This document shows, piece by piece, positions 1,004 through 45,284 of a DNA stretch of 64,000 nt (within the stretch, counting starts at the first letter, position 1; each line of letters begins with the position of its first letter). The notes below the pieces were generated by a model. It did no database searches, had not been told where the DNA came from, and worked only from the letters and a program-made list of their open reading frames with translations. The position numbers and the translations under genes were made by a program. The stretch comes from Escherichia phage JY01. The DNA is taken from the sequence record OR995200.1. One strand, written 5' to 3'.

Positions 1004-1032
1004 GTAATTTCCTTCAATTCAAATGAGATTTA

Positions 1033-1058
1033 ATTTTATAACTAATTTAATAAAGCAA
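1033..1058 (-). promoter_or_regulatory. MotA-dependent middle promoter for gene 45
   Basis: Minus strand reads aaTTGCTTTA (MotA box) then 10 nt then TATAAAAT, about 30 nt upstream of the gene 45 ATG. Confidence 0.7.
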
Positions 1059-1701: not shown

Positions 1702-3384
1702 TTAAACCATTACAGTAAATCGACCAACTTTCTTCATTTGAAGATGCTGACCGTATGCTTGCGGGTCATGGTCTCTATGCGAAATAACAAAAACATTAGT
1801 ATTTTTTAAACTATCTAAAATAGTTGAAATAGCTTTTACACCTTCAACGTCGGTCGCTGAATCAAAAACTTCATCAAGAATTAGTGTGTTTATTTTAACG
1901 CCTGAAACTTTTTCAGCAATATCACGCCAAGTAAATAAAAGAGCAATATCAATTCGCGCTTTTTCACCTTGACTGAATGAAGCATAACTAAAATCTTCAC
2001 GACCACGTGATTTAATTGTCTCATTAAATTCTTCATCTAATGTAAACACATAATCCGCTTCCATTATTTTAAGATAATGGTTAATCTGCTTATTAAATAA
2101 TGGAATGTACTTTTTAATAATAGCACCTTTAATACCAGAATCTTTGAGCATATCAGTCAAAATTCCTCGGTGGTATTTTTCCATTACTAAATTAGTTTTT
2201 GTCTTAACAATTTTATCAAGTTCTTCTTGAAGCAGTGCTATTTCATCAGCATGGTCAATAAACTCAGAAGATGCTTTTTCTATAGCCGCTTTAACCTTTT
2301 TAGCTTTATCTACTGCTGCGATCAGAGATTGCTTTTTATTGCGAATATCATTTGCCAACGACTGCTGGGTTTTAATATTATCTCGGTATTCATCAACAAG
2401 AACTTTTAAATTATCACGATGTGTTGAAAGCTGTTCAAACGAATGCGTACATTCAGAAACTTTATCTTTAATTTTAGAAACAACTTTATCACCTGAACTT
2501 AATTGTGACAAGCAGGTTGGGCATAATCCACCTTCGTGATACATATTAATGACTTTATTATACGAGTCAATTTTTGATTTAATTAAAACTGCTTCTTGAC
2601 CGATTTTATTAAATGCATCAGTCGGGTCTTCATCTAAAACAATATTAACTAATCTTTCATTAGCTTCTTCTATTTCCGATTTTAGCGTTCTAGCTTCTTT
2701 TGCCAAATCATCATACATATTTTGAAGACGAGTAAGGTTGTCACCCGTTAATTTTTTCTGGCGTTCAACGTTATCATTATATATTTTAATTTGTTGGATA
2801 ATACTATCTTTTTTAACATCAAGCACTTGGTTTTGTGAATTTAATTCACGTATTAGTGCTTTATTAAGCTTATCCATTTCAGCTAATGTTCCTACCTCAA
2901 GCAGGTCTTCCACAAGCTTTCTTCGCGCAGGGGTCGACAAACCCATGAAAGGGGTATACCCTGCTGTACCAAGGACAACAATCTGCTTGAAACTGGCATA
3001 TGACATTCCGATAAGCTGTTCAAATTCTGCTTGGAAATCTTTACTGCTGGCAGATTCATTAAGACGTGTACCGTTAACGGTGATTTCGAAAACGTTTGGT
3101 TTTTGTCCTCTTTTGATATAGTACTTTTTCTCATCATATTCCATCCACAGTTCAACTAAAAGTTCTTTCTTATTTGTGCTGTTTATTAATTGACCTTTCT
3201 TTACATCACGAAATGGCTTGCCAAAAAGCCCAAATGTGATGGCTTCTAACATAGTAGACTTACCACCGCCATTTCGTCCAGTAATAAGAGTTTTTTGAAC
3301 CTTATCTAATTGAATGCCAATAGGATTTCCACCTACTGACATTATATTTTGATACCTAACTCGGTTTAGTTTAAAATTCTTCAC
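1702..3384 (-). CDS. 46: Recombination endonuclease subunit gp46 (Rad50/SbcC-like ATPase)
   Basis: 560-aa ORF with N-terminal Walker A GRNGGGKST, long coiled-coil middle, C-terminal signature/Walker B region (LILDEVFD). Confidence 0.92.
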   Translation of the reverse strand: MKNFKLNRVRYQNIMSVGGNPIGIQLDKVQKTLITGRNGGGKSTMLEAITFGLFGKPFRDVKKGQLINSTNKKELLVELWMEYDEKKYYIKRGQKPNVFEITVNGTRLNESASSKDFQAEFEQLIGMSYASFKQIVVLGTAGYTPFMGLSTPARRKLVEDLLEVGTLAEMDKLNKALIRELNSQNQVLDVKKDSIIQQIKIYNDNVERQKKLTGDNLTRLQNMYDDLAKEARTLKSEIEEANERLVNIVLDEDPTDAFNKIGQEAVLIKSKIDSYNKVINMYHEGGLCPTCLSQLSSGDKVVSKIKDKVSECTHSFEQLSTHRDNLKVLVDEYRDNIKTQQSLANDIRNKKQSLIAAVDKAKKVKAAIEKASSEFIDHADEIALLQEELDKIVKTKTNLVMEKYHRGILTDMLKDSGIKGAIIKKYIPLFNKQINHYLKIMEADYVFTLDEEFNETIKSRGREDFSYASFSQGEKARIDIALLFTWRDIAEKVSGVKINTLILDEVFDSATDVEGVKAISTILDSLKNTNVFVISHRDHDPQAYGQHLQMKKVGRFTVMV

Positions 3385-5006: not shown

Positions 5007-5024
5007 TAAAGGGCCGAAGCCCTT
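5007..5024 (-). other. UUCG-tetraloop hairpin at the a-gt 3' end
   Basis: Minus strand AAAGGGC-UUCG-GCCCUUU overlapping the a-gt stop codon. Confidence 0.55.
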
Positions 5025-6226
5025 TATTTTGTAATAATGTCAAACTGTTCTTTAAAACAGAAGCTTGAATCTTGATGCTGATACAAAAATTCATAAGCTT
5101 TTTCACGTTCGCGGTCATAAAGAGCTCGGTCAGATGACAGTTCTTTAATACGTTCAAATGTTGATTCCATATCATTTTCATCAAACCAAATGATACCGCT
5201 ATCATGCGAGGTCAAAGGAGTATTATCAACACGGAATTTTAAATTTTCGCCAGTAGATTTCCAAAATACCGGAATTGTTCCACATGCACCAAGCTCGAGA
5301 TGAGTATATTCTAAAGAACGTTGTAGATATTTTTTATCCAACTTACTCAACTGATAACCAAAACCGGATTTACTCATACGTTCAAGCATTTCGCTATTTA
5401 CATAACGGTCAAGAATTTGCGTTGGCAAATTAGGAGCAATTTTAATTTGGTCTACTTGATGAAGACGATAATACTCGTATGGAATTCCTTTTTCTTTAAT
5501 AGGAATGAACGCTGGAGAACGTTCCAGACCTTCCATAATAGTACTTAGTCCTGCAGGTTTAAGATGTTTTTCATGAAAATCAAACATCTGATAAAAACCT
5601 TTCCATGTAGTCGTACGACCAATCCAACGGTTAACATTCATGTTAACTTCAGAAACATCTTTCCAGTAGGTTGACCGAACCTTCGCAATATCCATAGGAG
5701 GCTGAAAGTTATATACTGTCGGTGCTTCTTCAATATCATCAAACAGAGAAACAGTTTCTGGATACCATTCTTTCATCAGAACTTTATTAAAATCGCCATT
5801 ATCAGAATGGCTAAAAATAACATCAGCTCGACGAACAGTTTCTTCTAATCCCAAATTTCGACGCAAAGAAAGAGAAGAATGGTCATGCTGATAAACTACA
5901 ACACGAACAGAAGGTTTAATGTTATCAATAATTTTTTTATAGTTATTAATAGTGTCTTCTTCAACCGAAGTAGCAGGAACTGAATTGATAATTAGAATAT
6001 CACAATCATTTACCAGCTTAAGTGTTTTATCGTATTCTTTTGCCAATAAAACCGGAATTGAAAATGATTTATAATCATGCGCACAATTACGAGTAAATGA
6101 TTTATCTTTAGCATAAACCAAAGTTACTTCATGACCATTTTTAATAAACCAATCACGTTGCTCAAGAGAAAATTTAGTTACACCACAACCTTCAAGACCT
6201 CGAGCCATAAAAATACATACTTTCAT
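5024..6226 (-). CDS. a-gt: DNA alpha-glucosyltransferase
   Basis: 400-aa ORF, sequence recognised as T4 alpha-gt (…CIFMARGLEGCGVTKFSLEQRDWF…). Confidence 0.85.
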   Translation of the reverse strand: MKVCIFMARGLEGCGVTKFSLEQRDWFIKNGHEVTLVYAKDKSFTRNCAHDYKSFSIPVLLAKEYDKTLKLVNDCDILIINSVPATSVEEDTINNYKKIIDNIKPSVRVVVYQHDHSSLSLRRNLGLEETVRRADVIFSHSDNGDFNKVLMKEWYPETVSLFDDIEEAPTVYNFQPPMDIAKVRSTYWKDVSEVNMNVNRWIGRTTTWKGFYQMFDFHEKHLKPAGLSTIMEGLERSPAFIPIKEKGIPYEYYRLHQVDQIKIAPNLPTQILDRYVNSEMLERMSKSGFGYQLSKLDKKYLQRSLEYTHLELGACGTIPVFWKSTGENLKFRVDNTPLTSHDSGIIWFDENDMESTFERIKELSSDRALYDREREKAYEFLYQHQDSSFCFKEQFDIITK

Positions 6227-6250
6227 TTAATATCCTCTTTGTTTTGGTTT

Positions 6251-9947: not shown

Positions 9948-10230
9948 GAGAAATAATTCCTTGGTAAGCCCAATAAGGAGGATTAACAGAATCCTCACCA
10001 GAGTTTTCTTCAGGAAAATAAACCTGGATAACGAAGCCGGATTCATCAAAGGTGAAATAAGTAGTAGGCAGTTCACCTAACAAATCGGCACGAGCGTTGA
10101 TTTCTTCGAGGTCTTGTTCACGTCCAGCCCAGAAGCTTGGGTTCAGACTACATTCATAGAAATAATAGTCATTACCGAACATATCAAAACCATTCCAACT
10201 CTCTACTACATACCGCTCAAAACTAATCAT
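9919..10230 (-). CDS. Hypothetical protein
   Basis: 103-aa ORF, co-oriented. Confidence 0.5.
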   Translation of the reverse strand: MISFERYVVESWNGFDMFGNDYYFYECSLNPSFWAGREQDLEEINARADLLGELPTTYFTFDESGFVIQVYFPEENSGEDSVNPPYWAYQGIISRGTKLELKE

Positions 10231-10232
10231 AA

Positions 10233-10448
10233 TTAAGCCTTTTTATCAAGAACAGCATTCAGCTTGTTAGTAATTTTATCCAGACGCTCATTGAACTCAC
10301 TAGAAGATAAGCCTTTTTCTGGAGAAATTAAGCTAATCACGAAAAATACAACAATAAAAGGAATAAGGAAAATAGCTCCAACTGCCATAAACAGAAAGAA
10401 TGTTACAGTTGTAAGAAAATCAGCTAAACCTTTACGAAATTTATACAT
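10233..10448 (-). CDS. Hypothetical small membrane protein
   Basis: 71-aa ORF with a hydrophobic segment (FLFMAVGAIFLIPFIVVFFVISLI). Confidence 0.5.
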   Translation of the reverse strand: MYKFRKGLADFLTTVTFFLFMAVGAIFLIPFIVVFFVISLISPEKGLSSSEFNERLDKITNKLNAVLDKKA

Positions 10449-10568
10449 ATTTTACCCTTAATTGATTAACCAAGCATTGATAAGCACTAAACTATATTGG
10501 GAATAAAATTCTGGACCAAAATGAAAAATCATATCATTTATAGTATCCATAATATAATATAATTCAAT

Positions 10569-11039
10569 TTAATCATGTTTCCACACCCCATCGGTATTTG
10601 ACCAAAGTCGCTGATTGTCTGATCCTCGCCACAGCTTTTTGGTCGGAAGATTTTTCTCATACTTCCCATCAATAATAACATCAACATATTTAAGCATTTC
10701 TAGTTGTTTAATATCTTCAAACTTATATCCTGTCCACAACCAAATGCTTTTATTGGGATAAAGATTTTTTACTGTTTGAACGATGCAATGAATAACATCT
10801 CGGTTATCAGGATAGAGAGGGTCACCTCCGGTTATAGTCAATCCTTCTATATAATCATTATTCAAACATTCAATCAATTGTTCTAGTGTTTCACCAGTGA
10901 ATGGAATACCATTTCTAGCATTCCATGTTGATTTATTATAACACCCTTCGCATTTATGCAAACAACCTGTGACGAAAAGAACGACCCTGCATCCAGGGCC
11001 ATTCACAAAATCACAGGGATAAAATCTATCATAATTCAT
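10569..11039 (-). CDS. nrdG: Anaerobic ribonucleotide reductase activating protein (radical SAM) NrdG
   Basis: 156-aa ORF with CX3CX2C cluster (CLHKCEGC); 4-nt overlap with nrdD stop. Confidence 0.9.
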   Translation of the reverse strand: MNYDRFYPCDFVNGPGCRVVLFVTGCLHKCEGCYNKSTWNARNGIPFTGETLEQLIECLNNDYIEGLTITGGDPLYPDNRDVIHCIVQTVKNLYPNKSIWLWTGYKFEDIKQLEMLKYVDVIIDGKYEKNLPTKKLWRGSDNQRLWSNTDGVWKHD

Positions 11040-12853
11040 TGGTGTTTAACCCTATGCATGATTTCTTTATTTTTACCGAGATTAAATCCGCGTTCGTTCG
11101 GATTTCCCAAATAACCACATGTTCTTCTTATGGTATTCATCTTTTTAGGATCAGTTTCTCCGCAAATAGAACAAACAAATCCGTTTTCAGTAGGAGTCAT
11201 TTCATGGGTACTTCCACATGTAAAACATTTATCTACTGGCATATTAACACCAAAATAATCTAAATGTTGTGCGGCATAATCCCATACAGCCTCAAGACCT
11301 TTTAAGTTATTTTTCATATCAGGAAGTTCAACATAAGAAATGTGACCACCTGTCGCAATGAAATGATATGGCGCTTCACGAGAAATCTTTTCAAACGGAG
11401 TAACATTTTCTTCTACTGAAACGTGGAAACTGTTAGTGTACCAGCCTTTATCAGTAACATCCTTTACACTTCCATATTTTTCTGTATCAAGTTTACAGAA
11501 GCGATAGCAAAGGTTTTCAGCAGGAGTAGAATACAAGCTAAAAGCAAATCCAGTTCTTTCAGTCCACTGTTTAAGATGAGCATTCATTTTAGTTAAAATT
11601 TCTTGCCCAATATCACGACCGACAAGAATATTCAATTCGTGAATACCAATGTATCCTAAAGACACTGAACTTCTACCGTTTTTAAATAACTCAATTATGT
11701 CGTCATCAGGTTTAAGACGAACCCCGAATGCACCTTCTTGGTAAAGAATAGGAGCAACAGTCGCTTTAACTCCTTTTAAGGAACTAATTCTACACATCAA
11801 AGCTTCAAAACATAAATCCATTCGCTCATTGAACAATTCAGTAAATTTCTGTTCATTGAACTGTGTTCCAATATAAGAATCTAACGCAATACGAGGAAGA
11901 TTCAGTGTTACAACACCAAGATTATTACGTCCATCAAGAATTTCATTGCCAGTCGAATCTTTCCATACGCTCAAGAAACTACGGCATCCCATCGGGGAAA
12001 CAGGAACAGATGAACCAGTGATAGCTTTATTGTTCTTAGCTGAAATAATATCAGGATACATCCTTTTGCTTGCACACTCTAAAGCAAGCTGCTTAATATC
12101 ATAGTTCGGATCGTCTTTATAAAGATTAACACCTTCTTCAACAAACATAACAAGCTTAGGGAAAATAGGAGTTATCCCATCACGACCAAGACCTTTAATA
12201 CGATTTTTCAAAATTGCTTTCTGAATCATTCGTTCAGTCCAGTCAGTTCCTGTACCAAATGTAATTGTTACAAAAGGAGTCTGTCCGTTTGAACTAAAGA
12301 GAGTATTTACTTCATATTCATAAGCTTGGAATGCATCGTATACGTCTTTTTCTGTTTTAGATTGGGCATAATTCAGTGCATCGGCGATTTGCCATTTTTC
12401 TGCGTCTTCGATATGTTTTGCATAGGTGCGTTTAACATAAGGAGAAAGTACTTTATCTACATTAGCAAAAGTCGTTCCGCCATATTGATGGGAAGCAACT
12501 TGCGCAGTAATTTGTGCCATAATTGCAGTAGCAACACCGATTGATTTAGGAGTTTCAATCTGCGCATTACCAAGCTTAAATCCGTTCTCAAGCATTCCTT
12601 TTAAATCTACTAAACAACAATTAGTAAATGGAAGAGCAGGGGAATAATCAATATCATGAAAATGAATAATTCCGCTTTCATGCGCTTTCATAATAAAAGA
12701 CGGGACCATATTTTTGGCAATGTGTTTAGACACAATACCAGCCATAAGGTCCCGTTGAGTTGGAAAAACACGAGAATCTTTATTAGCATTCTCGTTTAAA
12801 AGGTCTTTATTAGTTTTATGAATCAATCCTTCAATTTCTTTTTCAATTGTCAT
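11036..12853 (-). CDS. nrdD: Anaerobic ribonucleoside-triphosphate reductase NrdD, uninterrupted
   Basis: 605-aa ORF with C-terminal glycyl-radical motif RRTCGYLG and Cys-rich zinc ribbon (CFTCGSTHE...CSICGE). Confidence 0.93.
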   Translation of the reverse strand: MTIEKEIEGLIHKTNKDLLNENANKDSRVFPTQRDLMAGIVSKHIAKNMVPSFIMKAHESGIIHFHDIDYSPALPFTNCCLVDLKGMLENGFKLGNAQIETPKSIGVATAIMAQITAQVASHQYGGTTFANVDKVLSPYVKRTYAKHIEDAEKWQIADALNYAQSKTEKDVYDAFQAYEYEVNTLFSSNGQTPFVTITFGTGTDWTERMIQKAILKNRIKGLGRDGITPIFPKLVMFVEEGVNLYKDDPNYDIKQLALECASKRMYPDIISAKNNKAITGSSVPVSPMGCRSFLSVWKDSTGNEILDGRNNLGVVTLNLPRIALDSYIGTQFNEQKFTELFNERMDLCFEALMCRISSLKGVKATVAPILYQEGAFGVRLKPDDDIIELFKNGRSSVSLGYIGIHELNILVGRDIGQEILTKMNAHLKQWTERTGFAFSLYSTPAENLCYRFCKLDTEKYGSVKDVTDKGWYTNSFHVSVEENVTPFEKISREAPYHFIATGGHISYVELPDMKNNLKGLEAVWDYAAQHLDYFGVNMPVDKCFTCGSTHEMTPTENGFVCSICGETDPKKMNTIRRTCGYLGNPNERGFNLGKNKEIMHRVKHQ

Positions 12854-13323
12854 TTTAAACTCTTTCTAAGCTGCTTCTTAAATGAAGCTATTAATTGTGT
12901 TTTAGTGTCAGATTCATTATATTCAAATCCTCTTTGAAGCATCTCGGCCATCATTTCCTCTTTTCCTAAACGAGAAAATTCCTTTGATTTATCTCCAACA
13001 AAGTTAGGGTGAATATTATTTTGGGTGTAATCGGATTTTAAATAAGTAAGTAAATTTTCTAACCATTCAAGATAATCAACACCTTGTCCCTTTAAGCCAG
13101 AACGATTAAATTTATGCTTCATTTGACCTTCTGCGGCATTGCATAGATTACAAAGCAATCCACGTACCTTTCCTGCTTTTGGTCCATTTAATTCATGGTC
13201 ATGATCAAGATGATTAGCTTGAACATCAGGATTTAGTTCTCGTTGGCAAATTAAGCATTTACCGTTTTGTGCATTATAAAATTTTTGTTTTTCTTCTTTG
13301 TATAATTTGCCAGTCAATAACAT
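12850..13323 (-). CDS. 49: Endonuclease VII (Holliday junction resolvase) gp49
   Basis: 157-aa ORF recognised as T4 endo VII (MLLTGKLYKEEKQKFY…CLICQ…CNLCN zinc site). Confidence 0.9.
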   Translation of the reverse strand: MLLTGKLYKEEKQKFYNAQNGKCLICQRELNPDVQANHLDHDHELNGPKAGKVRGLLCNLCNAAEGQMKHKFNRSGLKGQGVDYLEWLENLLTYLKSDYTQNNIHPNFVGDKSKEFSRLGKEEMMAEMLQRGFEYNESDTKTQLIASFKKQLRKSLK

Positions 13324-13368
13324 AATAAAACCCTTACCTTAAATAGATAAGGGTATTTATTATTTTTA

Positions 13369-13411
13369 AGTATTGTAAAACATTCGATGCAATCGTTTAT
13401 ACTGTCGAATC
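13369..13411. repeat. Imperfect direct repeat, copy 1 (second copy at 13581-13624)
   Basis: About 43 nt aagtattgtaaaacatt(c/t)gatgcaatcg… shared with the pin 3' end, 4 mismatches, 212 nt apart. Confidence 0.8.
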
Positions 13412-13578
13412 ATCTTTTTAGTAGGACGAGAATAGGTTCCTACGCAAGTGGTCATATGAGGGTCCGTAGAATGTCCTTTAATAAAAAGTTTCCAAACCTT
13501 ACCGCCATTTAACTTTTCAGTATAAACCAATTCGGTTTTCATTAAAATGTCCTGTCAGAAAAAGAATTTTGAGTTTTT

Positions 13579-14064
13579 TCAAGTATTGTAAAACATTTGA
13601 TGCAATCGCTTATATTGCCGAATCTTTTGGTCAGAAAAAGAAATTTGAGTTTCAAGCCATTCAATGTACTCTGCGGCAGCTTGCATCAGGTTACCTTCAT
13701 AGCCATCGTTATTTTCTTGCGCAGCTAATTTAGCTAATGCGTATGAAATACGTTCACCTTGAAAAGCGGCTTTAGGATTCTGAACATCTTGGCTAGTTCT
13801 CTCTACAACTTCTTCAATTTCGCCATTTTCAACGGATTCAGTATTCCACAAACACCAGTATGTAATTGGCTTATCATAGATGTTAATAATCTTTCCGTCG
13901 GAAAGTTCAATTTCAATAATTCCAGTATCAGGTTCTATATCATCTTCGCATTCTTTTGCAAGTTCACGAACTTTAAAGACAGTACCTGCACTAAGTTCCG
14001 GCCAGTAATTACATAGCCCTGTATCAACACGATTAATTCTAAACCACTTATCTACTGTAATCAT
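13579..14064 (-). CDS. pin: Protease inhibitor Pin
   Basis: Track ORF trimmed to Met7 (MITVDKWF…), 161 aa, matching T4 pin size and position. Confidence 0.75.
   Translation of the reverse strand: MITVDKWFRINRVDTGLCNYWPELSAGTVFKVRELAKECEDDIEPDTGIIEIELSDGKIINIYDKPITYWCLWNTESVENGEIEEVVERTSQDVQNPKAAFQGERISYALAKLAAQENNDGYEGNLMQAAAEYIEWLETQISFSDQKIRQYKRLHQMFYNT
13581..13624. repeat. Imperfect direct repeat, copy 2 (encodes pin C-terminus)
   Basis: Matches 13369-13411; a second short repeat gtcagaaaaagaa(t/a)tttgagtt occurs at 13551-13572 and 13630-13652. Confidence 0.8.
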
Positions 14065-19879: not shown

Positions 19880-20407
19880 TTATGCGAGTACCGTCTTTAA
19901 CCGTTCTTCAAATTTCCGAAGAGTGTTCTGGCGTTCAGCTCTTTGCTTTTTGTAAGTTTCAATACGCTCTGAAATGAGAGTGTATCGTTCATTTACTGAT
20001 TCTTTCATAAAATCAGGAATTTCACGAGAAGCTTTAATCTCATCAAATTTATCAATAACAGCTTGCTCTTCAGCAATTAAGTTATCATACATTAAAATAT
20101 CTTTCTTGATGAACTCAATATCTTCTTGAGTTACACGAGATAATTTAGATGCTTTATCCTTTTTGTACTGTTCGTTAGTATCACGAGACCAGTGTAATGT
20201 ACGATTTTTATTCGTATTTTTGTAAATTTCTACAATACCAATTTCATCAATAATAACGATCCAATTCCAACGGGATTTGTAAATTTGTCCTCCATCAACA
20301 GTGATTTCACCTCCGATTGAGATGTCGTTAAAGAACTTGCTTTGTGCTTCAGATTTAAATTTACCATCGTTGTAATTTACCAAGTTGAAAATATCTTTAG
20401 CGTTCAT
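19880..20407 (-). CDS. Hypothetical protein with C-terminal coiled coil
   Basis: Track ORF trimmed to MNAKDIF; the annotated first 20 codons are a read-through of the promoter/5'-UTR module. Confidence 0.55.
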   Translation of the reverse strand: MNAKDIFNLVNYNDGKFKSEAQSKFFNDISIGGEITVDGGQIYKSRWNWIVIIDEIGIVEIYKNTNKNRTLHWSRDTNEQYKKDKASKLSRVTQEDIEFIKKDILMYDNLIAEEQAVIDKFDEIKASREIPDFMKESVNERYTLISERIETYKKQRAERQNTLRKFEERLKTVLA

Positions 20408-20433
20408 TTTCTGTTCCTCCGTAGTTGATAGTT

Positions 20434-20465
20434 GTATAGTACCACAGAGGAACAGTCTTGTAAAC
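20434..20465 (-). promoter_or_regulatory. Early promoter with conserved 5'-UTR module
   Basis: Minus strand: GTTTAC, 17 nt, tgtgGTACTATAC, then AACTATCAACTAC GGAGG ATG. Confidence 0.6.
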
Positions 20466-20467
20466 AA

Positions 20468-20782
20468 CTAAAAGAAACTTCTTTCACAATTTTTTCCACT
20501 GAACCAAGCGCTCACTGCTTTCTTAGTCTCAGGAGCAGTGTTATCCATAAACCATTCAAAGGCAGCCTTTTTATGATTCTGGAGGGCTTCTCGGGCTTTA
20601 ATCTGCTCACGGTCTATTAACACTAACATATGAGCCTTTCTTGTCACCAAGGGCTTCTTATGATTCTTGGAGTATTCCCAGTCATTTGTCCAACGCATTG
20701 TCGTTGCGAACTGAAATACTGCTTCTTTAATTTTAGTTTCGTAAATTTCACGAGCCTTTGAGTATAACATCATTACCTCCAT
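20468..20782 (-). CDS. Hypothetical protein
   Basis: 104-aa ORF. Confidence 0.5.
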   Translation of the reverse strand: MEVMMLYSKAREIYETKIKEAVFQFATTMRWTNDWEYSKNHKKPLVTRKAHMLVLIDREQIKAREALQNHKKAAFEWFMDNTAPETKKAVSAWFSGKNCERSFF

Positions 20783-20871: not shown

Positions 20872-21840
20872 TTATTTCAGAAGAGTAACCTCAGCAATTT
20901 CTTCCCAACCGTTTTTGTCGGTCATAATAAAGTCAGCAAGATAAAGAGCAGTACGCAGTGAAACATTGCGTAAACGATTAACATTGACTTTCATCCATGA
21001 TAATGCTTTATAAGTTTCTTCATCAGAAAGACCGCGCTTTTGCATCATGTCAGTTGAAAGAATAACATCTTCAACCCTGACCATAATTTCTTCATTAGTG
21101 TGAACACCCAAATCCAAATAAACTGAGCGGGACACTAATGCTTGTAAATGTGGAGCAAGTTTAGTACCACGGTCTAATTCGCGGTCAATGTCAACGTTTG
21201 TGATAAAAACAATCGTTCCTTTAAATTCAAACTCACGCTCAATGCCTTTTTCTTCTAAGTAAGAAGATGCAGTGCTCCAGCAGACTTTACGGGTCTCTCC
21301 AGTGTCCAGAGCGGCTTTTAGAAGATTAAGAATATCCATATCAGAGAAAACATCCACATCATCAATCAAAAGGACAGAATTCTCTTCACGATTATTCCAA
21401 AGCTGCTCATAAAGACCGATACCGGAGATTTTACCGTTAATGCTTTTATATTCAATGTATCCAATATCATTTGCTTTATTTAAAGCTTTATCTAAAGAAT
21501 ACGTTTTACCAATACCTGCTGCACCAGAGATAATTAATGAACGAATGTTTCCGTTAATAATACCATTCGTCATCATTCCCATAACATTAAATCTTTTATT
21601 AATGCGGGTTTTCATATCTTCATACGATTCTTTAACTTCTTCAACTTTTACACCATCATATGAAATGTCTGATTTGTAAACCCAAACACCGCGACGTTTA
21701 CCGTCAATTTCAACAAAAACTTTACCATCTCCTTGTGCATCTACCGGAGCATTATCTGGGAACCATTCGCCTAAGAGCTCAAAAGTTCCAGAGATTTCTT
21801 TACCGAAGTAGATACCCTTATTGATAGTTACAGTTTTCAT
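20872..21840 (-). CDS. AAA-type P-loop ATPase
   Basis: Walker A GAAGIGKT and Walker B LLIDDVD; true start is the second ATG after GGAG. Confidence 0.7.
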   Translation of the reverse strand: MKTVTINKGIYFGKEISGTFELLGEWFPDNAPVDAQGDGKVFVEIDGKRRGVWVYKSDISYDGVKVEEVKESYEDMKTRINKRFNVMGMMTNGIINGNIRSLIISGAAGIGKTYSLDKALNKANDIGYIEYKSINGKISGIGLYEQLWNNREENSVLLIDDVDVFSDMDILNLLKAALDTGETRKVCWSTASSYLEEKGIEREFEFKGTIVFITNVDIDRELDRGTKLAPHLQALVSRSVYLDLGVHTNEEIMVRVEDVILSTDMMQKRGLSDEETYKALSWMKVNVNRLRNVSLRTALYLADFIMTDKNGWEEIAEVTLLK

Positions 21841-21876
21841 TTTATTCTCCAAATCTGTATCAGTAGTTGATAGTTG

Positions 21877-21907
21877 TATAGTACCATAAAGCTTTATGAT
21901 TGTAAAC
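21877..21907 (-). promoter_or_regulatory. Early promoter with conserved 5'-UTR module
   Basis: Minus strand: GTTTAC, 17 nt, ttatgGTACTATAC AACTATCAACTACTGA; upstream of the AAA ATPase gene. Confidence 0.6.
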
Positions 21908-21929
21908 CGTTTTGTGAAAAATTTTTGAA

Positions 21930-21955
21930 ATAAAAAAGGGAGCCCGAAGGCTCCC
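21930..21955 (-). terminator. Rho-independent terminator after the nucleotidyltransferase gene
   Basis: Minus strand GGGAGCC-UUCG-GGCUCCC followed by UUUUUUA. Confidence 0.65.
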
Positions 21956-21957: not shown

Positions 21958-22971
21958 TCATTTATAATAACTTCGGTGGTTTTCAAGATAGACCTTCTCA
22001 AGGAAGTCATCCCAGAAACTCATGTCTACTGTTTTAGGCATACCGTTCTTAGAAGCTTCAGTAGATGCTGCTTCTACTTGATCGACCACATCTTCTAAAA
22101 ACTCTTGAACCGTTTTAAATGGATGCTTACCCAACTTCACGTCGAGAATAAATGGAGCGTCTTGAAGTGGATAAATCAAGTCGCCAGTTTTGTAAATTTC
22201 CAATAGTTGAAGTCCACCACGACAGGCATGACTCAGAGCTTTCCAGTCAATGCCTTCATTGGCTTCGGCCTTACGAGCACGTTCACCATATTCAGCATCT
22301 AATTTGTTCAGTGACTGCTTAAGCTCAATAAGAGAAAGCGTTGTCTGATATTTACGACCCAATACAGTGTAGAACGTTTGTGGACCTGTTTTCTCATGAT
22401 TATGGAATACCCATTCACAGAACTCGTTTTCTGGAAGACGATGCTTAATATCTTCAATTTTAGTGCGACGTTGTCCTTGTGTTCCATCTTCTCGGTAGAC
22501 ATTCCGTTGATCAGGAATTTGATTAACTACTTTCAATACATCACGTAATGCAGCCAAACGAGAACCCTTGACACCGTATTTAGAAGCTTGCTTGCGGACA
22601 TATCCTAAATAGGATTTCATGTTAGTCGTATAAAAACGAGAACGGTTGTCTTGAATAAACTTCCACACATCAGGCAAATCGGATTTAACCACTAGTTCAG
22701 GTGGAGTGTGAAGCATATCCAATGCTACAGTTTCACCATCTGCTGCTAATTTAAAGAAATATTTAAGACTGTATAGTTCATGGTCAATATCATCTTTAGT
22801 GTTTTTAGATGATGTGTTGTTAGTGTTTTTACTCATATGCTCTTTAACATTTCCGATAAGAATATCGCGAGCACGAGGAACAAAGATTTCTTTAAAATCT
22901 ACATCAGATTCTGGAGTAGAAGTTCCATAAAGATGACTACCAAAATAGCTTTTCATTACTGTTTTCATCAT
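21958..22971 (-). CDS. Putative nucleotidyltransferase-fold protein
   Basis: N-terminal motif FGSHLYGTSTPESDVD fits the GS…D.D signature of polymerase-beta-like nucleotidyltransferases. Confidence 0.55.
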   Translation of the reverse strand: MMKTVMKSYFGSHLYGTSTPESDVDFKEIFVPRARDILIGNVKEHMSKNTNNTSSKNTKDDIDHELYSLKYFFKLAADGETVALDMLHTPPELVVKSDLPDVWKFIQDNRSRFYTTNMKSYLGYVRKQASKYGVKGSRLAALRDVLKVVNQIPDQRNVYREDGTQGQRRTKIEDIKHRLPENEFCEWVFHNHEKTGPQTFYTVLGRKYQTTLSLIELKQSLNKLDAEYGERARKAEANEGIDWKALSHACRGGLQLLEIYKTGDLIYPLQDAPFILDVKLGKHPFKTVQEFLEDVVDQVEAASTEASKNGMPKTVDMSFWDDFLEKVYLENHRSYYK

Positions 22972-23429
22972 TCAGCCTTATATTCAATAACAGGACATAC
23001 TTTAGCTTTACGGGCTTTTAAAAATTCGACGATAATAGATTTCTTGGGTTGAATAGGAGGTAAACCTTTATACGCCCTATCAATATTTTCTACATGTAAA
23101 GCATAATCCTTTTTCCATTTATAATCTTTATATTTTTCATGCAGTTGTGCAGGAATAACAAATGAACCAATAATAAGTAAAACAAGCAAAATGGCAAGTA
23201 TAAATGCTGATGGAATAAGAGTCCATAAACTACCAAAAATAAGCCATTTCTGCATGATTTCTGCACAGATAATAGTTAGACCTGCGAGTATAGTACATCC
23301 GAAAAAAGAAACGAAAAATGTAGGAATAACAACAGACCAAAAATACGCGCATAGTGTCTTAGGTCGTTGCCATTCATCGTTAAACAATTTGAATAATTTA
23401 TAGTGCCAAGAGTTTTCATTAATAATCAT
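22968..23429 (-). CDS. Hypothetical membrane protein
   Basis: 153-aa ORF with 3-4 predicted TM segments. Confidence 0.5.
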   Translation of the reverse strand: MIINENSWHYKLFKLFNDEWQRPKTLCAYFWSVVIPTFFVSFFGCTILAGLTIICAEIMQKWLIFGSLWTLIPSAFILAILLVLLIIGSFVIPAQLHEKYKDYKWKKDYALHVENIDRAYKGLPPIQPKKSIIVEFLKARKAKVCPVIEYKAE

Positions 23430-23431
23430 AA

Positions 23432-23953
23432 TTATCCTTTCATTGAAGGCGTAACGGTTGTTAAATACTTAATCATAGCTTCAGCTTCTGATTTTGATAA
23501 TGAAATTTCTTCATTGTTTTGACGAATAGAAATAAAATCCGGATGACGGTCACCACCAGCTTTTAAAACACACATATAAGTATCGACTTCGCCTTCAATA
23601 TTTGAAATGATTGAAGCAGTTCCGCATGAATGTGGTTTTTGATAAATCAATACAGCTTTTCTTCCACCGTTTGACTGTTCATAGGCTTTTAATACATCAA
23701 GCAAATCAGTTCTTTTATCAATAGCTAAAATGTTATTTTCATCTTCAATGTTAAATCCTTCGGATACTTCATAAAGTGTTACCCATAAATCACCGATGTC
23801 AATAACAGCATTTACTTTTCCACGACTTTCAAGAGTATGACAAATTTTCTTGATTTCGTCATAACTCATTTTAATAATATCATCTCCTTGACTAAGGAAG
23901 ATGTCATTTTTAAATTCAACACGAATTAAACCGCTTCCACTTGAAATAAACAT
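23432..23953 (-). CDS. Hypothetical protein, paralogue of 23960..24514
   Basis: 173-aa ORF; C-terminus SIRQ…SKSEAEAMIKYLTTVTPSM parallels the neighbour's SIRQ…TKDEAIALKTYLDSVIPTM. Confidence 0.5.
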   Translation of the reverse strand: MFISSGSGLIRVEFKNDIFLSQGDDIIKMSYDEIKKICHTLESRGKVNAVIDIGDLWVTLYEVSEGFNIEDENNILAIDKRTDLLDVLKAYEQSNGGRKAVLIYQKPHSCGTASIISNIEGEVDTYMCVLKAGGDRHPDFISIRQNNEEISLSKSEAEAMIKYLTTVTPSMKG

Positions 23954-23959
23954 ATTTCC

Positions 23960-24514
23960 TCACTTTGAAATCATAGTTGGAATGACAGAATCAAGATAAG
24001 TCTTTAGTGCAATAGCTTCGTCTTTGGTAAATGTGACAATATGTGATCGAAAATCGTCAATTTGACGAATAGATACTATATCTCCCTCTTCATAGCATTT
24101 TGAAACATTTAAAATAGTTTCATCATTCTGATTACAGGAGTTAGTAATAATAGCATTACATTTTTTAAACCATTTTAAATTATGTTTTCTTTTAGTAGAA
24201 TCATAAAAATATTTAATGTTAGTTATAAAATTATCCCAATTATTAATTGATAAGCACATTGACTCGCTTTTAATATTAAATCCTGGGCATGAAGAATAAA
24301 AATGAATTTTATGCTCATCATTAATGCTTACAATTTTATCAGTGTAAGCATATTCAATTTGGGTTAAATGAACAATTTCACTAGACGTAAAATATAACAT
24401 ATCATCTTCTTGCGTCAAACGATACATGTTATTTACTTTTTCTATAGCCAATTCACCAAAAAGCACACTATCTTCTAATACTAATCGTTTCATATTAATC
24501 CTTTTTATTGGCAT
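23960..24514 (-). CDS. Hypothetical protein, paralogue of 23432..23953
   Basis: 184-aa ORF sharing the C-terminal motif. Confidence 0.5.
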   Translation of the reverse strand: MPIKRINMKRLVLEDSVLFGELAIEKVNNMYRLTQEDDMLYFTSSEIVHLTQIEYAYTDKIVSINDEHKIHFYSSCPGFNIKSESMCLSINNWDNFITNIKYFYDSTKRKHNLKWFKKCNAIITNSCNQNDETILNVSKCYEEGDIVSIRQIDDFRSHIVTFTKDEAIALKTYLDSVIPTMISK

Positions 24515-36674: not shown

Positions 36675-36704
36675 ATTATATCATGCTACTTAAGAGATGT
36701 AAAC
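36675..36704 (-). promoter_or_regulatory. Early promoter
   Basis: Minus strand: GTTTAC, 18 nt, TATAAT; upstream of 36039..36632. Confidence 0.5.
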
Positions 36705-37194
36705 TATTTTTAATTTTACAAATTCGTTCAGCTTCTTCAACAGCGGCAGTGATAATGCTTTTAGCTATAGGAGTACTAATACTAGTAGCTTTTACACTTA
36801 ACACGATTTCTTTATCTTTACCAGGCCAACCCCACGATTTTTCACCATGGGTGCCTTTAATTACAGCAGACACCTCAAGTGAGCATCCATTATCGCATGT
36901 TTTTACATTAACAACCCAAGTGTCACTTTTCTCAACCGGTTTATCCCAGTAAATATTAAGAATACGTGGAACATCAAATTTAGCAGGGCAAATCTTAACC
37001 GTAAGACCTTCGCTTTCTAGCCAATTAATAAGAGGGCGTTCATACATGCGGCGATGTGGGCTTTGAACTCGACAAGCTTTGTACCCATTGCTTGCGGCTT
37101 CACTAAGCTCTTCTAATACCTGCTTTTGCATTATTGATAAGATACCATCAAAAGATTTTTCGGAAGTTTCATTCAGTTCGGTATAAAGAGACAT
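36676..37194 (-). CDS. Hypothetical protein
   Basis: Track ORF trimmed to MSLYTELNET, which is preceded by GAGGAAA. Confidence 0.5.
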   Translation of the reverse strand: MSLYTELNETSEKSFDGILSIMQKQVLEELSEAASNGYKACRVQSPHRRMYERPLINWLESEGLTVKICPAKFDVPRILNIYWDKPVEKSDTWVVNVKTCDNGCSLEVSAVIKGTHGEKSWGWPGKDKEIVLSVKATSISTPIAKSIITAAVEEAERICKIKNSLHLLSSMI

Positions 37195-37211
37195 AACAGT
37201 TTTCCTCAAAT

Positions 37212-37250: not shown

Positions 37251-37514
37251 TTATTTCATATTATTGAAATATTCTTCTGCGATTTCGTCGTTATCATGGT
37301 AAACTTTAGAAGACAGTTTAACATAACCTTCAGCAGTGAACATGTTAATCACAACCTTTACAGTATACCACTGACCATCTTCATTACCCATTACTGCATA
37401 GGTTTCAAACATCGGATGATCAGGACCGATAACTTTAATATCATTCACCGTACGACCGAAATCTTCTGAAACACATTTCATAAAGAAGTTGAACAGTTCA
37501 CCGTAATTATCCAT
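37251..37514 (-). CDS. Hypothetical protein
   Basis: Track ORF trimmed to MDNYGELF; upstream GGAG belongs to the promoter/UTR module. Confidence 0.45.
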   Translation of the reverse strand: MDNYGELFNFFMKCVSEDFGRTVNDIKVIGPDHPMFETYAVMGNEDGQWYTVKVVINMFTAEGYVKLSSKVYHDNDEIAEEYFNNMK

Positions 37515-37556
37515 TTCATTCTCCAAGTTGTTTTCTGTATCAGTAGTTGATAGTTG

Positions 37557-37587
37557 TATAGTACCATAGAAGAACAGGGATGTAAAC
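37557..37587 (-). promoter_or_regulatory. Early promoter with conserved 5'-UTR module
   Basis: Minus strand: GTTTAC, 17 nt, ctatgGTACTATAC AACTATCAACTACTGA. Confidence 0.6.
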
Positions 37588-37715
37588 AGTTTTGTGAAAA
37601 ATTTTTAAAAAGTTTTGGGGAATTCTAGGGCAGGGAGGGGAAATCAAAGGATAGGATAATATATTATAAAGGGTAGAAACTAAATGATGTCTAGAGAGGC
37701 CTGGAAAGGCCTAGA

Positions 37716-37754: not shown

Positions 37755-38228
37755 TTATTTGATTTGTTTAGCAGACCAAATGCGGTCTTTAATAATTTTT
37801 TGGATATCTTCAACATACTCAAGAGAGTGAGCATGTGGGTTATCTTTGAAACTATAAGCACGAGCTAGTTTTTGGCCTTCAGTTTTGATTACTAAAAGCT
37901 CTTTAAGGATAGCTTCATATTTGGAGATAATTCCTTTAACAATATTTTTCTCTTGTGCGACTTTAGGATCTGCTTTAGGAGCAGGTTTACCCGAAGCCTT
38001 TGCAAAAGCAGCGCCAGTAGCAACTAAACTTTTCCAGGCCATACTAACTGCATTTCCCGTAAATCCTTCCGCTTTCATGTCGCGTGCGAACTGGAATCGT
38101 GATTCATCAGAAGCATCTTTGTAAGAATATTTACCCGCTGCAATGGCTGCTTTTGCGACAGCTTGAATTTCGGTGCTAGATGCTTCATTTAACACCGCTT
38201 CATTTAAAAATTGAGTATATGATTTCAT
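37755..38228 (-). CDS. Internal-protein-like head protein with capsid-targeting leader
   Basis: 157-aa ORF starting MKSYTQFLNEA; late promoter upstream; terminator hairpins on both sides. Confidence 0.6.
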   Translation of the reverse strand: MKSYTQFLNEAVLNEASSTEIQAVAKAAIAAGKYSYKDASDESRFQFARDMKAEGFTGNAVSMAWKSLVATGAAFAKASGKPAPKADPKVAQEKNIVKGIISKYEAILKELLVIKTEGQKLARAYSFKDNPHAHSLEYVEDIQKIIKDRIWSAKQIK

Positions 38229-38615: not shown

Positions 38616-38966
38616 TTAATATTCTTTTAAAGCATCAATCTGTTTACGGCGTTCACGCCATAAATCAATTGCTTCATACGCGGATTCAACATTTCGAATT
38701 GGACGGCATTTATATAAAGATTTGTGATTTTGATATTGCGTAGATAACGGAATTTTATCTAAAAGGTCTTTACGTTCAAAGTATTCGTAACCATCTAAGC
38801 CAAATGAACGATTTTTGAGAAATTGCCAATGACCAAATTCGTTTTGAATATAAATATAATCCGCATGTTGATAAAGTAAATTAATTTCACGAAATGAGAT
38901 ATGTTTTTCATATTCATTGAAGTAAAATGTTAAATCATGAACTACTAAATAAACATTACCTTTCAT
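38616..38966 (-). CDS. Hypothetical protein within the tRNA region
   Basis: 116-aa ORF between tRNA-Arg and the stable-RNA candidate. Confidence 0.45.
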   Translation of the reverse strand: MKGNVYLVVHDLTFYFNEYEKHISFREINLLYQHADYIYIQNEFGHWQFLKNRSFGLDGYEYFERKDLLDKIPLSTQYQNHKSLYKCRPIRNVESAYEAIDLWRERRKQIDALKEY

Positions 38967-38984
38967 ATTTTCCTCACTTATAAT

Positions 38985-39060
38985 TGGTCGAGGCAGTAGG
39001 GATCGAACCTACGACCTAGGACTTAGAAGGTCCTTGCTCTTCCTTCTGAGCTATGCCCCG
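38985..39060 (-). tRNA. tRNA-Arg (anticodon UCU)
   Basis: 76-nt cloverleaf read by hand; anticodon loop CUUCUAA; T-loop GGTTCGATCC; CCA encoded. Confidence 0.8.
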
Positions 39061-39064
39061 TAAT

Positions 39065-39140
39065 TGGGGTGACCGATGGGAGTCGAACCCATGACTACGA
39101 GAATCACAATCTCGAGTTCTACCAACTGAACTACGGCCAC
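39065..39140 (-). tRNA. tRNA-His (anticodon GUG), no encoded G-1
   Basis: 76-nt cloverleaf GTGGCCG…; anticodon loop TTGTGAT; discriminator C; CCA encoded; 5' flanking base is U. Confidence 0.65.
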
Positions 39141-39254
39141 ATTAATACCTACTCCAACAATCAAGATGTCTTCACACGAAATTAAGAGAAGAGTGATCAG
39201 TTCAACCCCTATAATCGCGTCAAGTAGATATTAATGTGACAGTTGTCACAAATT

Positions 39255-39329
39255 TGGCGGACGTGATAGGATTCGAACCTATAACCAATCGCTTAACAGG
39301 CGATCGCTCTGCCATTGAGCTACACATCC
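39255..39329 (-). tRNA. tRNA-Asn (anticodon GUU)
   Basis: 75-nt cloverleaf GGATGTGTAGCTCAATGGCAGAGC…; anticodon loop CTGTTAA; CCA encoded. Confidence 0.75.
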
Positions 39330-39333
39330 AAAT

Positions 39334-39420
39334 TGGTGGGGAGTGATGGAGTCGAACCACCCGAGTCGCAATGACAATGAATTTACAGTCCACACCGCTA
39401 CCTCTACGGGATAACTCCCC
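39334..39420 (-). tRNA. tRNA-Tyr (anticodon GUA), long variable arm
   Basis: 87-nt class II cloverleaf; anticodon loop CTGTAAA; 3-bp D-stem; CCA encoded. Confidence 0.7.
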
Positions 39421-39433
39421 TTAATTCATAATT

Positions 39434-39508
39434 TGGTGGCCCTGGGTGGAATTGAACCACCATCTGGCGATTATGAGTCGCTTGCTTGAACCTTCCAGCT
39501 ACAGGGCC
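39434..39508 (-). tRNA. tRNA with CAU anticodon (Ile2 by T4 synteny, or Met)
   Basis: 75-nt cloverleaf; anticodon loop CTCATAA; lies 1 nt downstream of tRNA-Thr, as in the T4 Thr-Ile dimer. Confidence 0.7.
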
Positions 39509-39509
39509 T

Positions 39510-39585
39510 TGGTGCTGATTGACGGAATCGAACCGCCGACCTTCTCATTACAAGTGAGTTGCTCTACCTACTGAGCTAAATCAGC
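39510..39585 (-). tRNA. tRNA-Thr (anticodon UGU)
   Basis: 76-nt cloverleaf GCTGATTTAGCTCAGTAGGTAGAGC…; anticodon loop CTTGTAA; CCA encoded. Confidence 0.8.
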
Positions 39586-39590
39586 AAAAC

Positions 39591-39680
39591 TGGCGGAGGT
39601 GATAGGATTCGAACCTATGAATCGCCGGAGCGACTGCCGGTTTTCAAGACCGGTGCATTCAACCACTCTGCCACACCTCC
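39591..39680 (-). tRNA. tRNA-Ser (anticodon UGA), long variable arm
   Basis: 90-nt class II tRNA; anticodon stem CCGGT/ACCGG with loop CTTGAAA; CCA encoded. Confidence 0.75.
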
Positions 39681-39682
39681 AG

Positions 39683-39756
39683 TCTCCATACAAGGATTTG
39701 AACCTTGGACCTCCTGATCCCAAATCAGGCGCTCTACCAAACTGAGCTACACGGAG
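39683..39756 (-). tRNA. tRNA-Pro (anticodon UGG), CCA not encoded
   Basis: 74-nt cloverleaf; anticodon loop TTTGGGA; 2-nt spacer to tRNA-Ser (Pro-Ser dimer arrangement). Confidence 0.75.
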
Positions 39757-39766
39757 TAAATTAAAT

Positions 39767-39840
<74 letters not shown>

Positions 39841-39845
39841 AAATT

Positions 39846-39932
39846 TGGTGCGAGAAGTGGGACTCGAACCCACAAGGAAATCATTCCGCAGCATTTTAAG
39901 TGCTGTGCCTTTACCAATTTGACCATTCTCGC
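39846..39932 (-). tRNA. tRNA-Leu (anticodon UAA), long variable arm
   Basis: 87-nt class II tRNA; anticodon stem CAGCA/TGCTG with loop CTTAAAA; CCA encoded. Confidence 0.8.
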
Positions 39933-39933
39933 G

Positions 39934-40006
39934 CTGGGAATAAAGGACTCGAACCTTTGCATCCTGGAATCAAAATCCAGTGCCTTACCAACTTGGCTAA
40001 TTCCCA
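39934..40006 (-). tRNA. tRNA-Gln (anticodon UUG), CCA not encoded
   Basis: Starts TGGGAATTAGCCAAGTTGGTAAGGC with U1-A72; anticodon loop TTTTGAT; 1-nt spacer to tRNA-Leu (Gln-Leu dimer). Confidence 0.8.
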
Positions 40007-40092: not shown

Positions 40093-40617
40093 TTAAAGCA
40101 AATTAAACATTTTAACGGTCGGCAAAACAATTTCTTCTTCTATATAAGAGTATTTAACACTCTCAACTACACGCAAGAAATCATAGTCATAATATTCAGA
40201 AGCATGACCAAGAATATCAATAAGGCCTTCAAATATCTTATTACCATTCACAAAGAATAAGTCAAATACACGTTCTTCATCTTCTTCGGATTTATTACCA
40301 AGGTCAACTTCTATATCAAAGACCTTTTTAATGAATTCTGGATAAAGTTGTTCTGAGAACAGTCCTTCAACCAAGTATTCATAAATAAAAAGCGATTGCT
40401 CGCTGAACAAGCCATTACCACAATAACGTTCAGCTTTAGTACTAGAATGTCTGCTTTTAAACTTCTTTAAAAGATATTGGAACTGTAAGATTTCATGCTC
40501 TTCTACGCCAAACAGTGTTTTAGTTTTATAGTTGTCACCATCATTTTCCCAGGTAGTGACATCAATTACGTAACCCTGCGGAATTGTAGTACCTAAACAA
40601 ATATTCATTTTCACCAC
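40093..40617 (-). CDS. Hypothetical protein
   Basis: 174-aa ORF downstream of the tRNA array. Confidence 0.5.
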   Translation of the reverse strand: MVKMNICLGTTIPQGYVIDVTTWENDGDNYKTKTLFGVEEHEILQFQYLLKKFKSRHSSTKAERYCGNGLFSEQSLFIYEYLVEGLFSEQLYPEFIKKVFDIEVDLGNKSEEDEERVFDLFFVNGNKIFEGLIDILGHASEYYDYDFLRVVESVKYSYIEEEIVLPTVKMFNLL

Positions 40618-41285: not shown

Positions 41286-41471
41286 TTACTCACCTTTAGA
41301 AATTTTATCCATAACGATAGCAATTAAACCAATTAAAAATGCTACTACAAGTGAAAATACATTTTCTGCTGTAGTTAATAATCCGCATATAAATCCAACA
41401 AACATTGAAAAACTAAAAGCGGAAGCAGAAATTGCAATAGCAACATTTCGAATTAATTCACAGCGTTTCAT
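41286..41471 (-). CDS. Hypothetical small membrane protein
   Basis: Track ORF trimmed to MKRCELIRNV; hydrophobic; upstream extension is the promoter/UTR module. Confidence 0.4.
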   Translation of the reverse strand: MKRCELIRNVAIAISASAFSFSMFVGFICGLLTTAENVFSLVVAFLIGLIAIVMDKISKGE

Positions 41472-41496
41472 TTTATTCTCCTCAGTAGTTGATAGG

Positions 41497-41529
41497 GTAA
41501 TAGTATCACTACTAAAACCCCGTGTAAAC
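41497..41529 (-). promoter_or_regulatory. Early promoter with conserved UP/5'-UTR module
   Basis: Minus strand: tttcacaaagtt, GTTTAC, 17 nt, gtgATACTATTAC, CCTATCAACTACTGAGGAG. Confidence 0.6.
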
Positions 41530-41541
41530 AACTTTGTGAAA

Positions 41542-41799
41542 TTATTTTAAATCTTCTAATCGTTTCTTCATCTTAGAACCATTTTTAGCGATTTCTCCTG
41601 CGTCAGAGCATAATGCTAAAAGTGCTTTAACTTTAGTTTGGTCTCCTTTAAAAGACGAAGGATCGACTGCAGCAGCAAGTTCTTTAATACGAGAGAAAAG
41701 ACGCTCAGCTTCAGCTAAAGCCATTCCAAGCTTTACTTCCATACCATGAGAAGATTCAGTGATAATAGTTTCTGTAGCAAACTCTTTATAAGTTTTCAT
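41542..41799 (-). CDS. Internal protein I-like (ipI position, capsid-targeting leader)
   Basis: 85-aa ORF starting MKTYKEFATE, immediately upstream of 57B as T4 ipI is. Confidence 0.6.
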   Translation of the reverse strand: MKTYKEFATETIITESSHGMEVKLGMALAEAERLFSRIKELAAAVDPSSFKGDQTKVKALLALCSDAGEIAKNGSKMKKRLEDLK

Positions 41800-41821
41800 T
41801 TTATTTTTCCTAATTAATTTT

Positions 41822-41860
41822 GATGAGGTAATAGTATCACTACCTCATCAGTGTGTAAAC
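41822..41860 (-). promoter_or_regulatory. Early promoter for ipI-like gene, -10 in hairpin loop
   Basis: Minus strand: GTTTAC, acac, TGATGAGGTA gtgatactat TACCTCATCA. Confidence 0.55.
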
Positions 41861-41872
41861 AACTTTGTGAAA

Positions 41873-42569
<697 letters not shown>

Positions 42570-43295: not shown

Positions 43296-43344
43296 GTGTT
43301 TCTCCTCAAATTTAATTAAGATTATAACACACAAAACTGAAGCA

Positions 43345-45258: not shown

Positions 45259-45269
45259 TGGATTCTCCT

Positions 45270-45277: not shown

Positions 45278-45284
45278 GATAATA

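Follow-up and report, generated by a model that had tools for sequence, protein, structure and literature searches.

The 64,000-nucleotide stretch of Escherichia phage JY01 DNA analysed here (referred to as the window) carries the gene nrdD without the intron that splits its T4 counterpart, and it lacks all six homing endonuclease genes of the corresponding part of the T4 genome. We consider it very probable that the window is a Tequatrovirus segment with the arrangement of phage T2 rather than that of T4, that its nrdD is best explained as the common, never-invaded form of the gene, that T4's five free-standing homing endonuclease genes are likewise missing from it, and that it would behave as T2 does when it meets T4. 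The segment extends from gp45 to gp15, with minus-strand genes up to approximately 45.3 kb and plus-strand genes beyond, and its best nucleotide matches are Tequatrovirus genomes at 97–98%, none of them identical. Covering about 38% of a genome of roughly 167 kb, it brings into view six of the 15 positions at which T4 harbors homing endonuclease genes.

The nrdD gene (11036..12853, minus strand), which encodes the large subunit of the class III (anaerobic) ribonucleotide reductase, was recognized from its open reading frame, its Pfam profile and its identity to T4 NrdD. The ORF listing gives it as a single uninterrupted frame of 605 codons beginning with ATG, as the preliminary description had reported, and a chance feature is excluded given this length in DNA of 35% G+C. 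Its product matches the Pfam family NRDD over positions 1–562 of 562 (E 1.7e-170), with a C-terminal Gly_radical domain (E 2.8e-25), and shares 99.3% of its amino acids with the protein from the spliced T4 gene (four substitutions). The gene itself runs collinear with the T4 exons after splicing, at 96.4% nucleotide identity. The T4 reference (NC_000866, assembled from four annotated stretches) has nrdD annotated as two exons with I-TevII inside, which bears out the earlier statement that the T4 gene is interrupted by an intron encoding this enzyme. In the alignment with the T4 gene the sole gap is this 1033-nt intron (T4 44815..45847). It follows nucleotide 538 of nrdD, so that the proposed alignment to the T4 exons places the empty site between window positions 12316 and 12315, where no extra bases are present. 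On the coding strand the site, taken from -2 to +20 by alignment to the T4 exons (12296..12317, minus strand), reads AT up to the insertion point and ATGAAGTAAATACTCTCTTT after it.

The neighborhood of nrdD is also that of T4, in which the gene keeps company with nrdG, 49 and pin; in the window nrdD overlaps at its start with the stop of gene 49 and at its end with the start of nrdG. The latter gene (10569..11039, minus strand), which encodes the activating enzyme, was identified by its ORF and by Pfam matches of its product to Fer4_12 (E 2.8e-47) and Radical_SAM, and thus a radical-SAM activase adjoins nrdD. T4 has mobC between the two genes; here the ATG of nrdG overlaps the stop codon of nrdD as ATGA at 11036..11039, and because of this direct overlap these four nucleotides represent the empty mobC/segH position. 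The blastn alignment breaks at window 11039, and T4 42917..43517 is left without counterpart. On the other side, gene 49 (12850..13323, minus strand) encodes endonuclease VII, as indicated by the Pfam domains Endonuclease_7 (E 8e-22) and Endonuc-dimeris, the PHROG family endonuclease VII and 99.4% amino-acid identity to T4 gp49 in tblastn. A weak match to a PHROG family named “HNH endonuclease” (E 5.7e-6) was also obtained, and endonuclease VII has a fold and active site related to those of the His-Me/HNH enzymes. Gene 49 is a conserved Holliday-junction resolvase at its normal position that belongs to an HNH-related nuclease family, and a homing enzyme is ruled out.

In T2 (AP018813) nrdD is likewise continuous (605 codons, 1818 nt) and ends in an overlap with the start of nrdG, mobC being absent. 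The T2 insertion site is identical to that of the window from -40 to +33, and the gene as a whole is 96.6% identical in nucleotide sequence. T2 also shares the lack of segB, an identical tRNA-Asn gene and, beside tRNA-Arg, an ortholog of a 116-codon ORF discussed below. The two are collinear almost throughout, with a few differences: the window has 11 tRNA genes and T2 nine (those for His and Thr are extra in the window), about 860 bp between genes 46 and 46.1 are found only in T2, and an ORF located between tRNA-Met and tRNA-Ser in T2 is missing from the window.

A continuous frame would also be left behind if an intron had once been present in this nrdD and had been deleted precisely, perhaps when a copy of the spliced transcript recombined with the gene, but such a history has very little probability. 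No group I intron was found by Rfam at the gathering score in the whole 64-kb window or, even at E ≤ 1, within 10000..14000, and the covariance model of the group I catalytic core (RF00028) had no match in the window; the nrdD intron of T4, used as a positive control, is recognized with 105 bits (E 1.7e-27). Precise loss would moreover be expected to leave T4-type flanks, including a G at -2, while those of the window are of the T2 type. The fused T4 exon junction was not encountered in uninterrupted form in any of 50,697 phage records, the best full-length match being 93.8%, followed by the T2 type at 91.3%. Since the T4-type junction is never uninterrupted in these records, T4-type flanks travel together with the intron, as co-conversion predicts. 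The never-invaded state of the window's allele hence remains the preferred reading.

The window and T2 differ from the T4 exons at seven nucleotides adjoining the insertion site (-2, +8, +11, +14, +15, +17 and +20), all of them synonymous and spread over six of eight consecutive codons. This density, seven in 22 nt between -2 and +20, compares with a background of 3.6%; seven differences were reached at the insertion site in none of 20,000 permutations, and anywhere in the gene in 0.1%. One might suppose from this clustering, and from the lack of an uninterrupted T4-type junction among phage records, that the window holds an immune allele, in which the seven differences were selected to block binding or cleavage by I-TevII so that the intron is unable to home. 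The stretch from -2 to +20 would then be the footprint of a conflict with the intron, and the T2-type sequence at least partly resistant to I-TevII. We regard both the selected immunity and this footprint as improbable. The very same sequence is present in T2, which is the classical partner without the intron in crosses with T4, and a second, similar cluster of differences is found at positions 1008–1033 of the gene, which indicates that clusters of this kind are no peculiarity of the homing site. A linkage between T4-type flanks and the intron is predicted by co-conversion during homing, and the G at -2 can be accounted for by pairing with the intron's guide sequence, as outlined below. If the idea were nevertheless true, partial resistance would help to explain why the intron is rare despite its efficient homing in the laboratory.

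A second lineage of introns occupies the same position of nrdD in 236Ecol005PP and pSe_SNUABM_01 and shares only 64% identity with the intron of T4. Both lineages have a G at -2 and the motif GCTCAT near the 5′ end of the intron, which can pair with ATGAGT of the exon, with a U-G wobble at the splice site. In a short fold the helix is kept with the T4 exon and lost with the A that the window has at -2. Judged from these sequences and this minimal fold, the G at -2 would reflect the need of the intron's guide sequence to pair with the exon.

The part of T4 that is collinear with the window (31.6–96.7 kb) is annotated with six homing endonuclease genes, mobB, mobC, I-TevII, mobD, segB and segC, in line with the earlier remark that T4 carries seg and mob endonucleases in this general region; the insertion sites of the T4 genes have been compiled (PMC2988022 Table 1). 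All six are missing from the window, as seen from blastn and from reading the junctions, and in four cases the junction is clean and empty. The blastn alignment of the window to T4 is collinear and interrupted at precisely the places where T4 has mobB, mobC, mobD, segC, the nrdD intron and the segB region. When the 15 homing endonuclease proteins of T4 were compared to the window by tblastn, nothing below E 0.06 was obtained. Profile HMMs were built from the Seg/I-Tev and Mob families of T4 and run against all stop-to-stop segments of at least 25 aa in six frames of the window, where the best Seg/Mob match had an E-value of 0.39 and less than 7 bits. [quoted passage not shown] The two domain profiles score the T4 proteins on which they were trained at 83–175 bits.

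Pfam was searched with the coding-strand ORFs of at least 45 aa except those of gp6 to gp15, and among these ORFs no GIY-YIG, SegE_GIY-YIG, HNH, NUMOD, LAGLIDADG or T5orf172 domain was detected. Ten ORFs were scanned singly, namely gene 49 and nine that have no T4 counterpart or only a diverged one, and the other ORFs of the coding strand as far as gene 5.4 were concatenated for the scan; the structural genes of gp6 to gp15, which lay outside it, are orthologous to T4 genes over nearly their full length. Nothing nuclease-like was added by PHROGs or NCBIfam. In single scans Pfam detects all six of the T4 enzymes, but a spike-in control revealed that concatenation lowers its sensitivity: the GIY-YIG match of SegC was lost, while the NUMOD3 match of SegC and the HNH match of MobC were kept. 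For this reason the negative result rests mainly on tblastn, the six-frame profiles, the single-protein scans of the main ORFs lacking a T4 counterpart and, for the other ORFs, the orthology to annotated T4 genes. The recommended profile searches for GIY-YIG and HNH domains returned no homing endonuclease domain in the window, and the characterization of the phage as a T4 relative devoid of T4's selfish elements is confirmed by blastn and tblastn for all six elements of the collinear region. The broader claim that no GIY-YIG or HNH-type ORF occurs anywhere in the window holds for homing endonucleases according to tblastn, six-frame profiles and Pfam, but its literal wording has to be qualified, because gene 49 belongs to an HNH-related family.

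The edges of the junctions were taken from the ends of blastn segments and from direct reading, as global MAFFT alignment misplaced gap edges across the large segments present only in T4. The empty mobB position (6218..6241, minus strand) lies between the alpha-glucosyltransferase gene (5024..6226) and the a-gt.2 homolog, where the alignment breaks between window 6217 and 6242 and T4 37817 and 38679, and the junction sequences leave 24 nt in place of the 861 nt of T4. The mobD position (22973..23934, minus strand), without blastn match to T4, is occupied by other genes, namely a membrane-protein gene (22968..23429) and an additional, second copy of the MobD.1/y05I-like gene (23432..23953); these genes belong to phrog_944 and the Pfam families T4_y05I_N and T4_y05I_C, and Pfam found no HNH domain in them. 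The segment with segB is replaced at window 38617..39488 in the blastn comparison with T4. The empty segC position (48133..48138, plus strand) is defined by a break at window 48138/48133 versus T4 80217/80775 and by the junction sequences: gene 5.1 (47579..48136) abuts gene 5.4 (48137..48430), a PAAR gene with a PAAR_motif match, and both segC and 5.3 of T4 are missing. The practical yield is a set of exact coordinates for the six empty homing endonuclease positions.

The window has a cluster of 11 tRNA genes (38985..40006, minus strand; identified by ARAGORN and Rfam) that contains no segB. A potential target of SegB is there: the tRNA-Asn gene of this minus-strand cluster (39255..39329), 100% identical to that of T2, has the GGTTCGAATCC core. 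The preferred 27-bp site of SegB lies wholly within tRNA-Asn of T2L, and when T4 is crossed with T2L, inheritance of segB is close to 100% and the tRNA markers of T2L are lost (PMC2330249).

Next to the cluster, between the homolog of the species-2 RNA gene (rnaD) and tRNA-Arg, lies an ORF of 116 codons (38616..38966, minus strand; phrog_3355), whose product shares 86% of its amino acids with that of the ORF at the same place, beside tRNA-Arg, in T2; two such ORFs have been described in the tRNA region of T2L (PMC2330249). Its family is very small and confined to T4-like phages (seven clusters among 5.8 billion proteins and six representatives among 1.84 billion). The preliminary description had singled out this ORF as a possible hidden homing endonuclease, but it turned out to be no recognizable nuclease: neither Pfam nor NCBIfam assigns it to a family, profile-profile comparison by hhalign with GIY-YIG and HNH alignments gave probabilities of 0.1–0.2%, and the AlphaFold2 model (pLDDT 63, from a shallow alignment) had no Foldseek match in the PDB at E < 0.25, a low-confidence result that carries little weight either way. 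A predicted strand-strand-helix-strand arrangement at its start and an invariant arginine had prompted the idea of a small GIY-YIG domain, which was rejected on account of the hhalign probability of 0.2% and the silence of Pfam.

Close to the tRNA cluster the window has four uncharacterized insertions relative to T4, the ORFs at 36676..37209, 37755..38228, 38616..38966 and 40093..40617, and a homing endonuclease of an undescribed family might instead be concealed among them. All four occupy intergenic positions that vary, which is also where free-standing homing endonuclease genes are found, and are without Pfam or NCBIfam family; it has also been cautioned that complements of homing endonucleases are under-counted (PMC10448857). 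Against this, none of the four matches a nuclease profile, the 116-codon ORF has neither a detectable relation to GIY-YIG or HNH enzymes nor a fold match, and it is present also in T2, a phage counted with a single homing endonuclease gene. We therefore rate the chance of such a family as very slight and retain the reading of a T2-type segment in which the T4 homing endonuclease genes are missing.

It is reasonable, judged from the sequence, to regard the window's nrdD as an intron-minus recipient, since its empty site is base for base that of T2 from -40 to +33, and the uninterrupted exon junction that characterizes a recipient allele for I-TevII is present in the gene. The substrate on which I-TevII was characterized is the fused T4 exons, and the enzyme reportedly cuts 13–15 nt into exon 2. 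T2 is reported to receive the nrdD intron in T4 × T2 crosses (Quirk et al. 1989; Sandegren and Sjoberg 2004). Because the site of the window differs from the fused T4 exons at seven of 22 nucleotides, with the cut position included, the expectation that it can be cleaved is based on its identity to T2 and on these reported crosses.

In a mixed infection with T4, the DNA of the window would be expected to act as T2 does, since both its nrdD site and its tRNA-Asn are identical in sequence to those of T2. By this analogy, exon 2 would be cleaved by I-TevII a few bases from its start and tRNA-Asn by SegB, and repair of the double-strand break off the T4 copy would lead to the intron or segB being copied in with flanking T4 markers, following the mechanism of cutting, repair and co-conversion established for homing in T4 (PMC2988022). 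Markers of the window would be expected to be excluded in such infections.

That the T4 introns and the majority of the seg and mob genes are missing from most T-even phages has been known since the late 1980s. An uninterrupted nrdD is the norm among T4 relatives and no distinguishing trait, and the observation from which this analysis started is correct but ordinary, already known and documented for decades. It has little importance beyond correct annotation and the assignment of the segment to the T2-type arrangement. With an 80-nt probe across the site, the empty site was found contiguous in 973 of 1038 phage records. The full T4 intron was detected by megablast in at least 25 records, many of which are laboratory stocks of T4; this count is too low, as the diverged lineage is missed by megablast and two more records were found, and 973 of 1038 is the better figure. 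T4 itself has been described as an oddity with 15 homing endonucleases, most related genomes having few (PMC2988022), and T2 as poor in homing endonucleases within a lineage that is rich in them (PMC10448857). One homing endonuclease gene has been counted in T2 and none in RB26, RB69 and JS98 (PMC2993671 Table 5). The closest nucleotide matches of the window at 97–98% include RB51, RB68, RB32, SHBML-50-1 and Sa45lw, in all of which nrdD is contiguous, although RB32 and RB51, unlike the stretch studied here, are listed with four homing endonuclease genes each, counted genome-wide (PMC2993671 Table 5).

The fused exon junction of the T4 type was not found uninterrupted in any of 50,697 phage records, the best match reaching 93.8%. 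A second lineage of nrdD intron, inserted at exactly the same site as the T4 intron, occurs in two phages, Escherichia phage 236Ecol005PP (nrdD intron locus L007, 2003..4866) and Salmonella phage pSe_SNUABM_01 (L008, 2003..4865). This intron is about 1045 nt long, shares only 64% identity with that of T4 and was missed by the megablast search. In 236Ecol005PP the annotation splits the I-TevII-like ORF into two pieces, and the ORF may therefore be disrupted. Both intron lineages have a G at position -2 relative to the insertion site, a base that, judged from the sequence, could pair with the intron sequence GCTCAT; the window (12296..12317, spanning -2 to +20) and T2 have an A at this position.

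A second dense cluster of differences to T4 lies within nrdD at gene positions 1008..1033 (window 11821..11846), with seven differences in about 20 nt, V338T among them, and part of it is shared by T2. The intron site is therefore not the only place with a patch of local divergence.

At the position of mobC, T4 carries a duplication of about 20 nt (ATGAATTATGAYAGAATYTAT) on both sides of the gene (T4 42896..42916 and 43518..43538), whereas the window has a single copy (11019..11039). Owing to this duplication, MobC and NrdG of T4 both start with MNYDRIY, and the insertion of mobC may have been guided by the sequence in common at the start of nrdG. In place of T4 mobD, the window has two genes (both within 22968..24514): one for a membrane protein of phrog_944 and a further, diverged copy of the MobD.1/y05I-like gene, which adjoins the counterpart of T4 mobD.1. 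T2 is longer than the window by about 860 bp between genes 46 and 46.1 (AP018813, 32873..33734; window counterpart 3368..3375), and this additional stretch includes a 204-aa ORF that is absent from the window and may be the single HNH-type homing endonuclease gene reported for T2.

The window encodes 11 tRNAs (Arg, His, Asn, Tyr, Met, Thr, Ser, Pro, Gly, Leu and Gln; 38985..40006), more than the eight of T4 or the nine of T2, in a mosaic cluster that combines a T2-type end (Arg to Met) with a T4-type Thr and an extra His. Near this cluster, one ORF replaces T4 e.7 (36676..37209) and two are inserted relative to T4 (37755..38228 and 40093..40617, the latter with a counterpart in T2). All three lack a counterpart at the corresponding T4 positions and gave no match in Pfam and NCBIfam searches; they are members of PHROG families of unknown function.

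Five intergenic stretches of 60-110 nt (20403..20469, 21834..21942, 37505..37610, 41466..41557 and 41794..41878) show 76-96% identity to several scattered T4 intergenic regions (near 6.6, 27.0, 70.6, 146.8, 163.6 and 167.0 kb), and probably represent repeated promoter-containing sequences.
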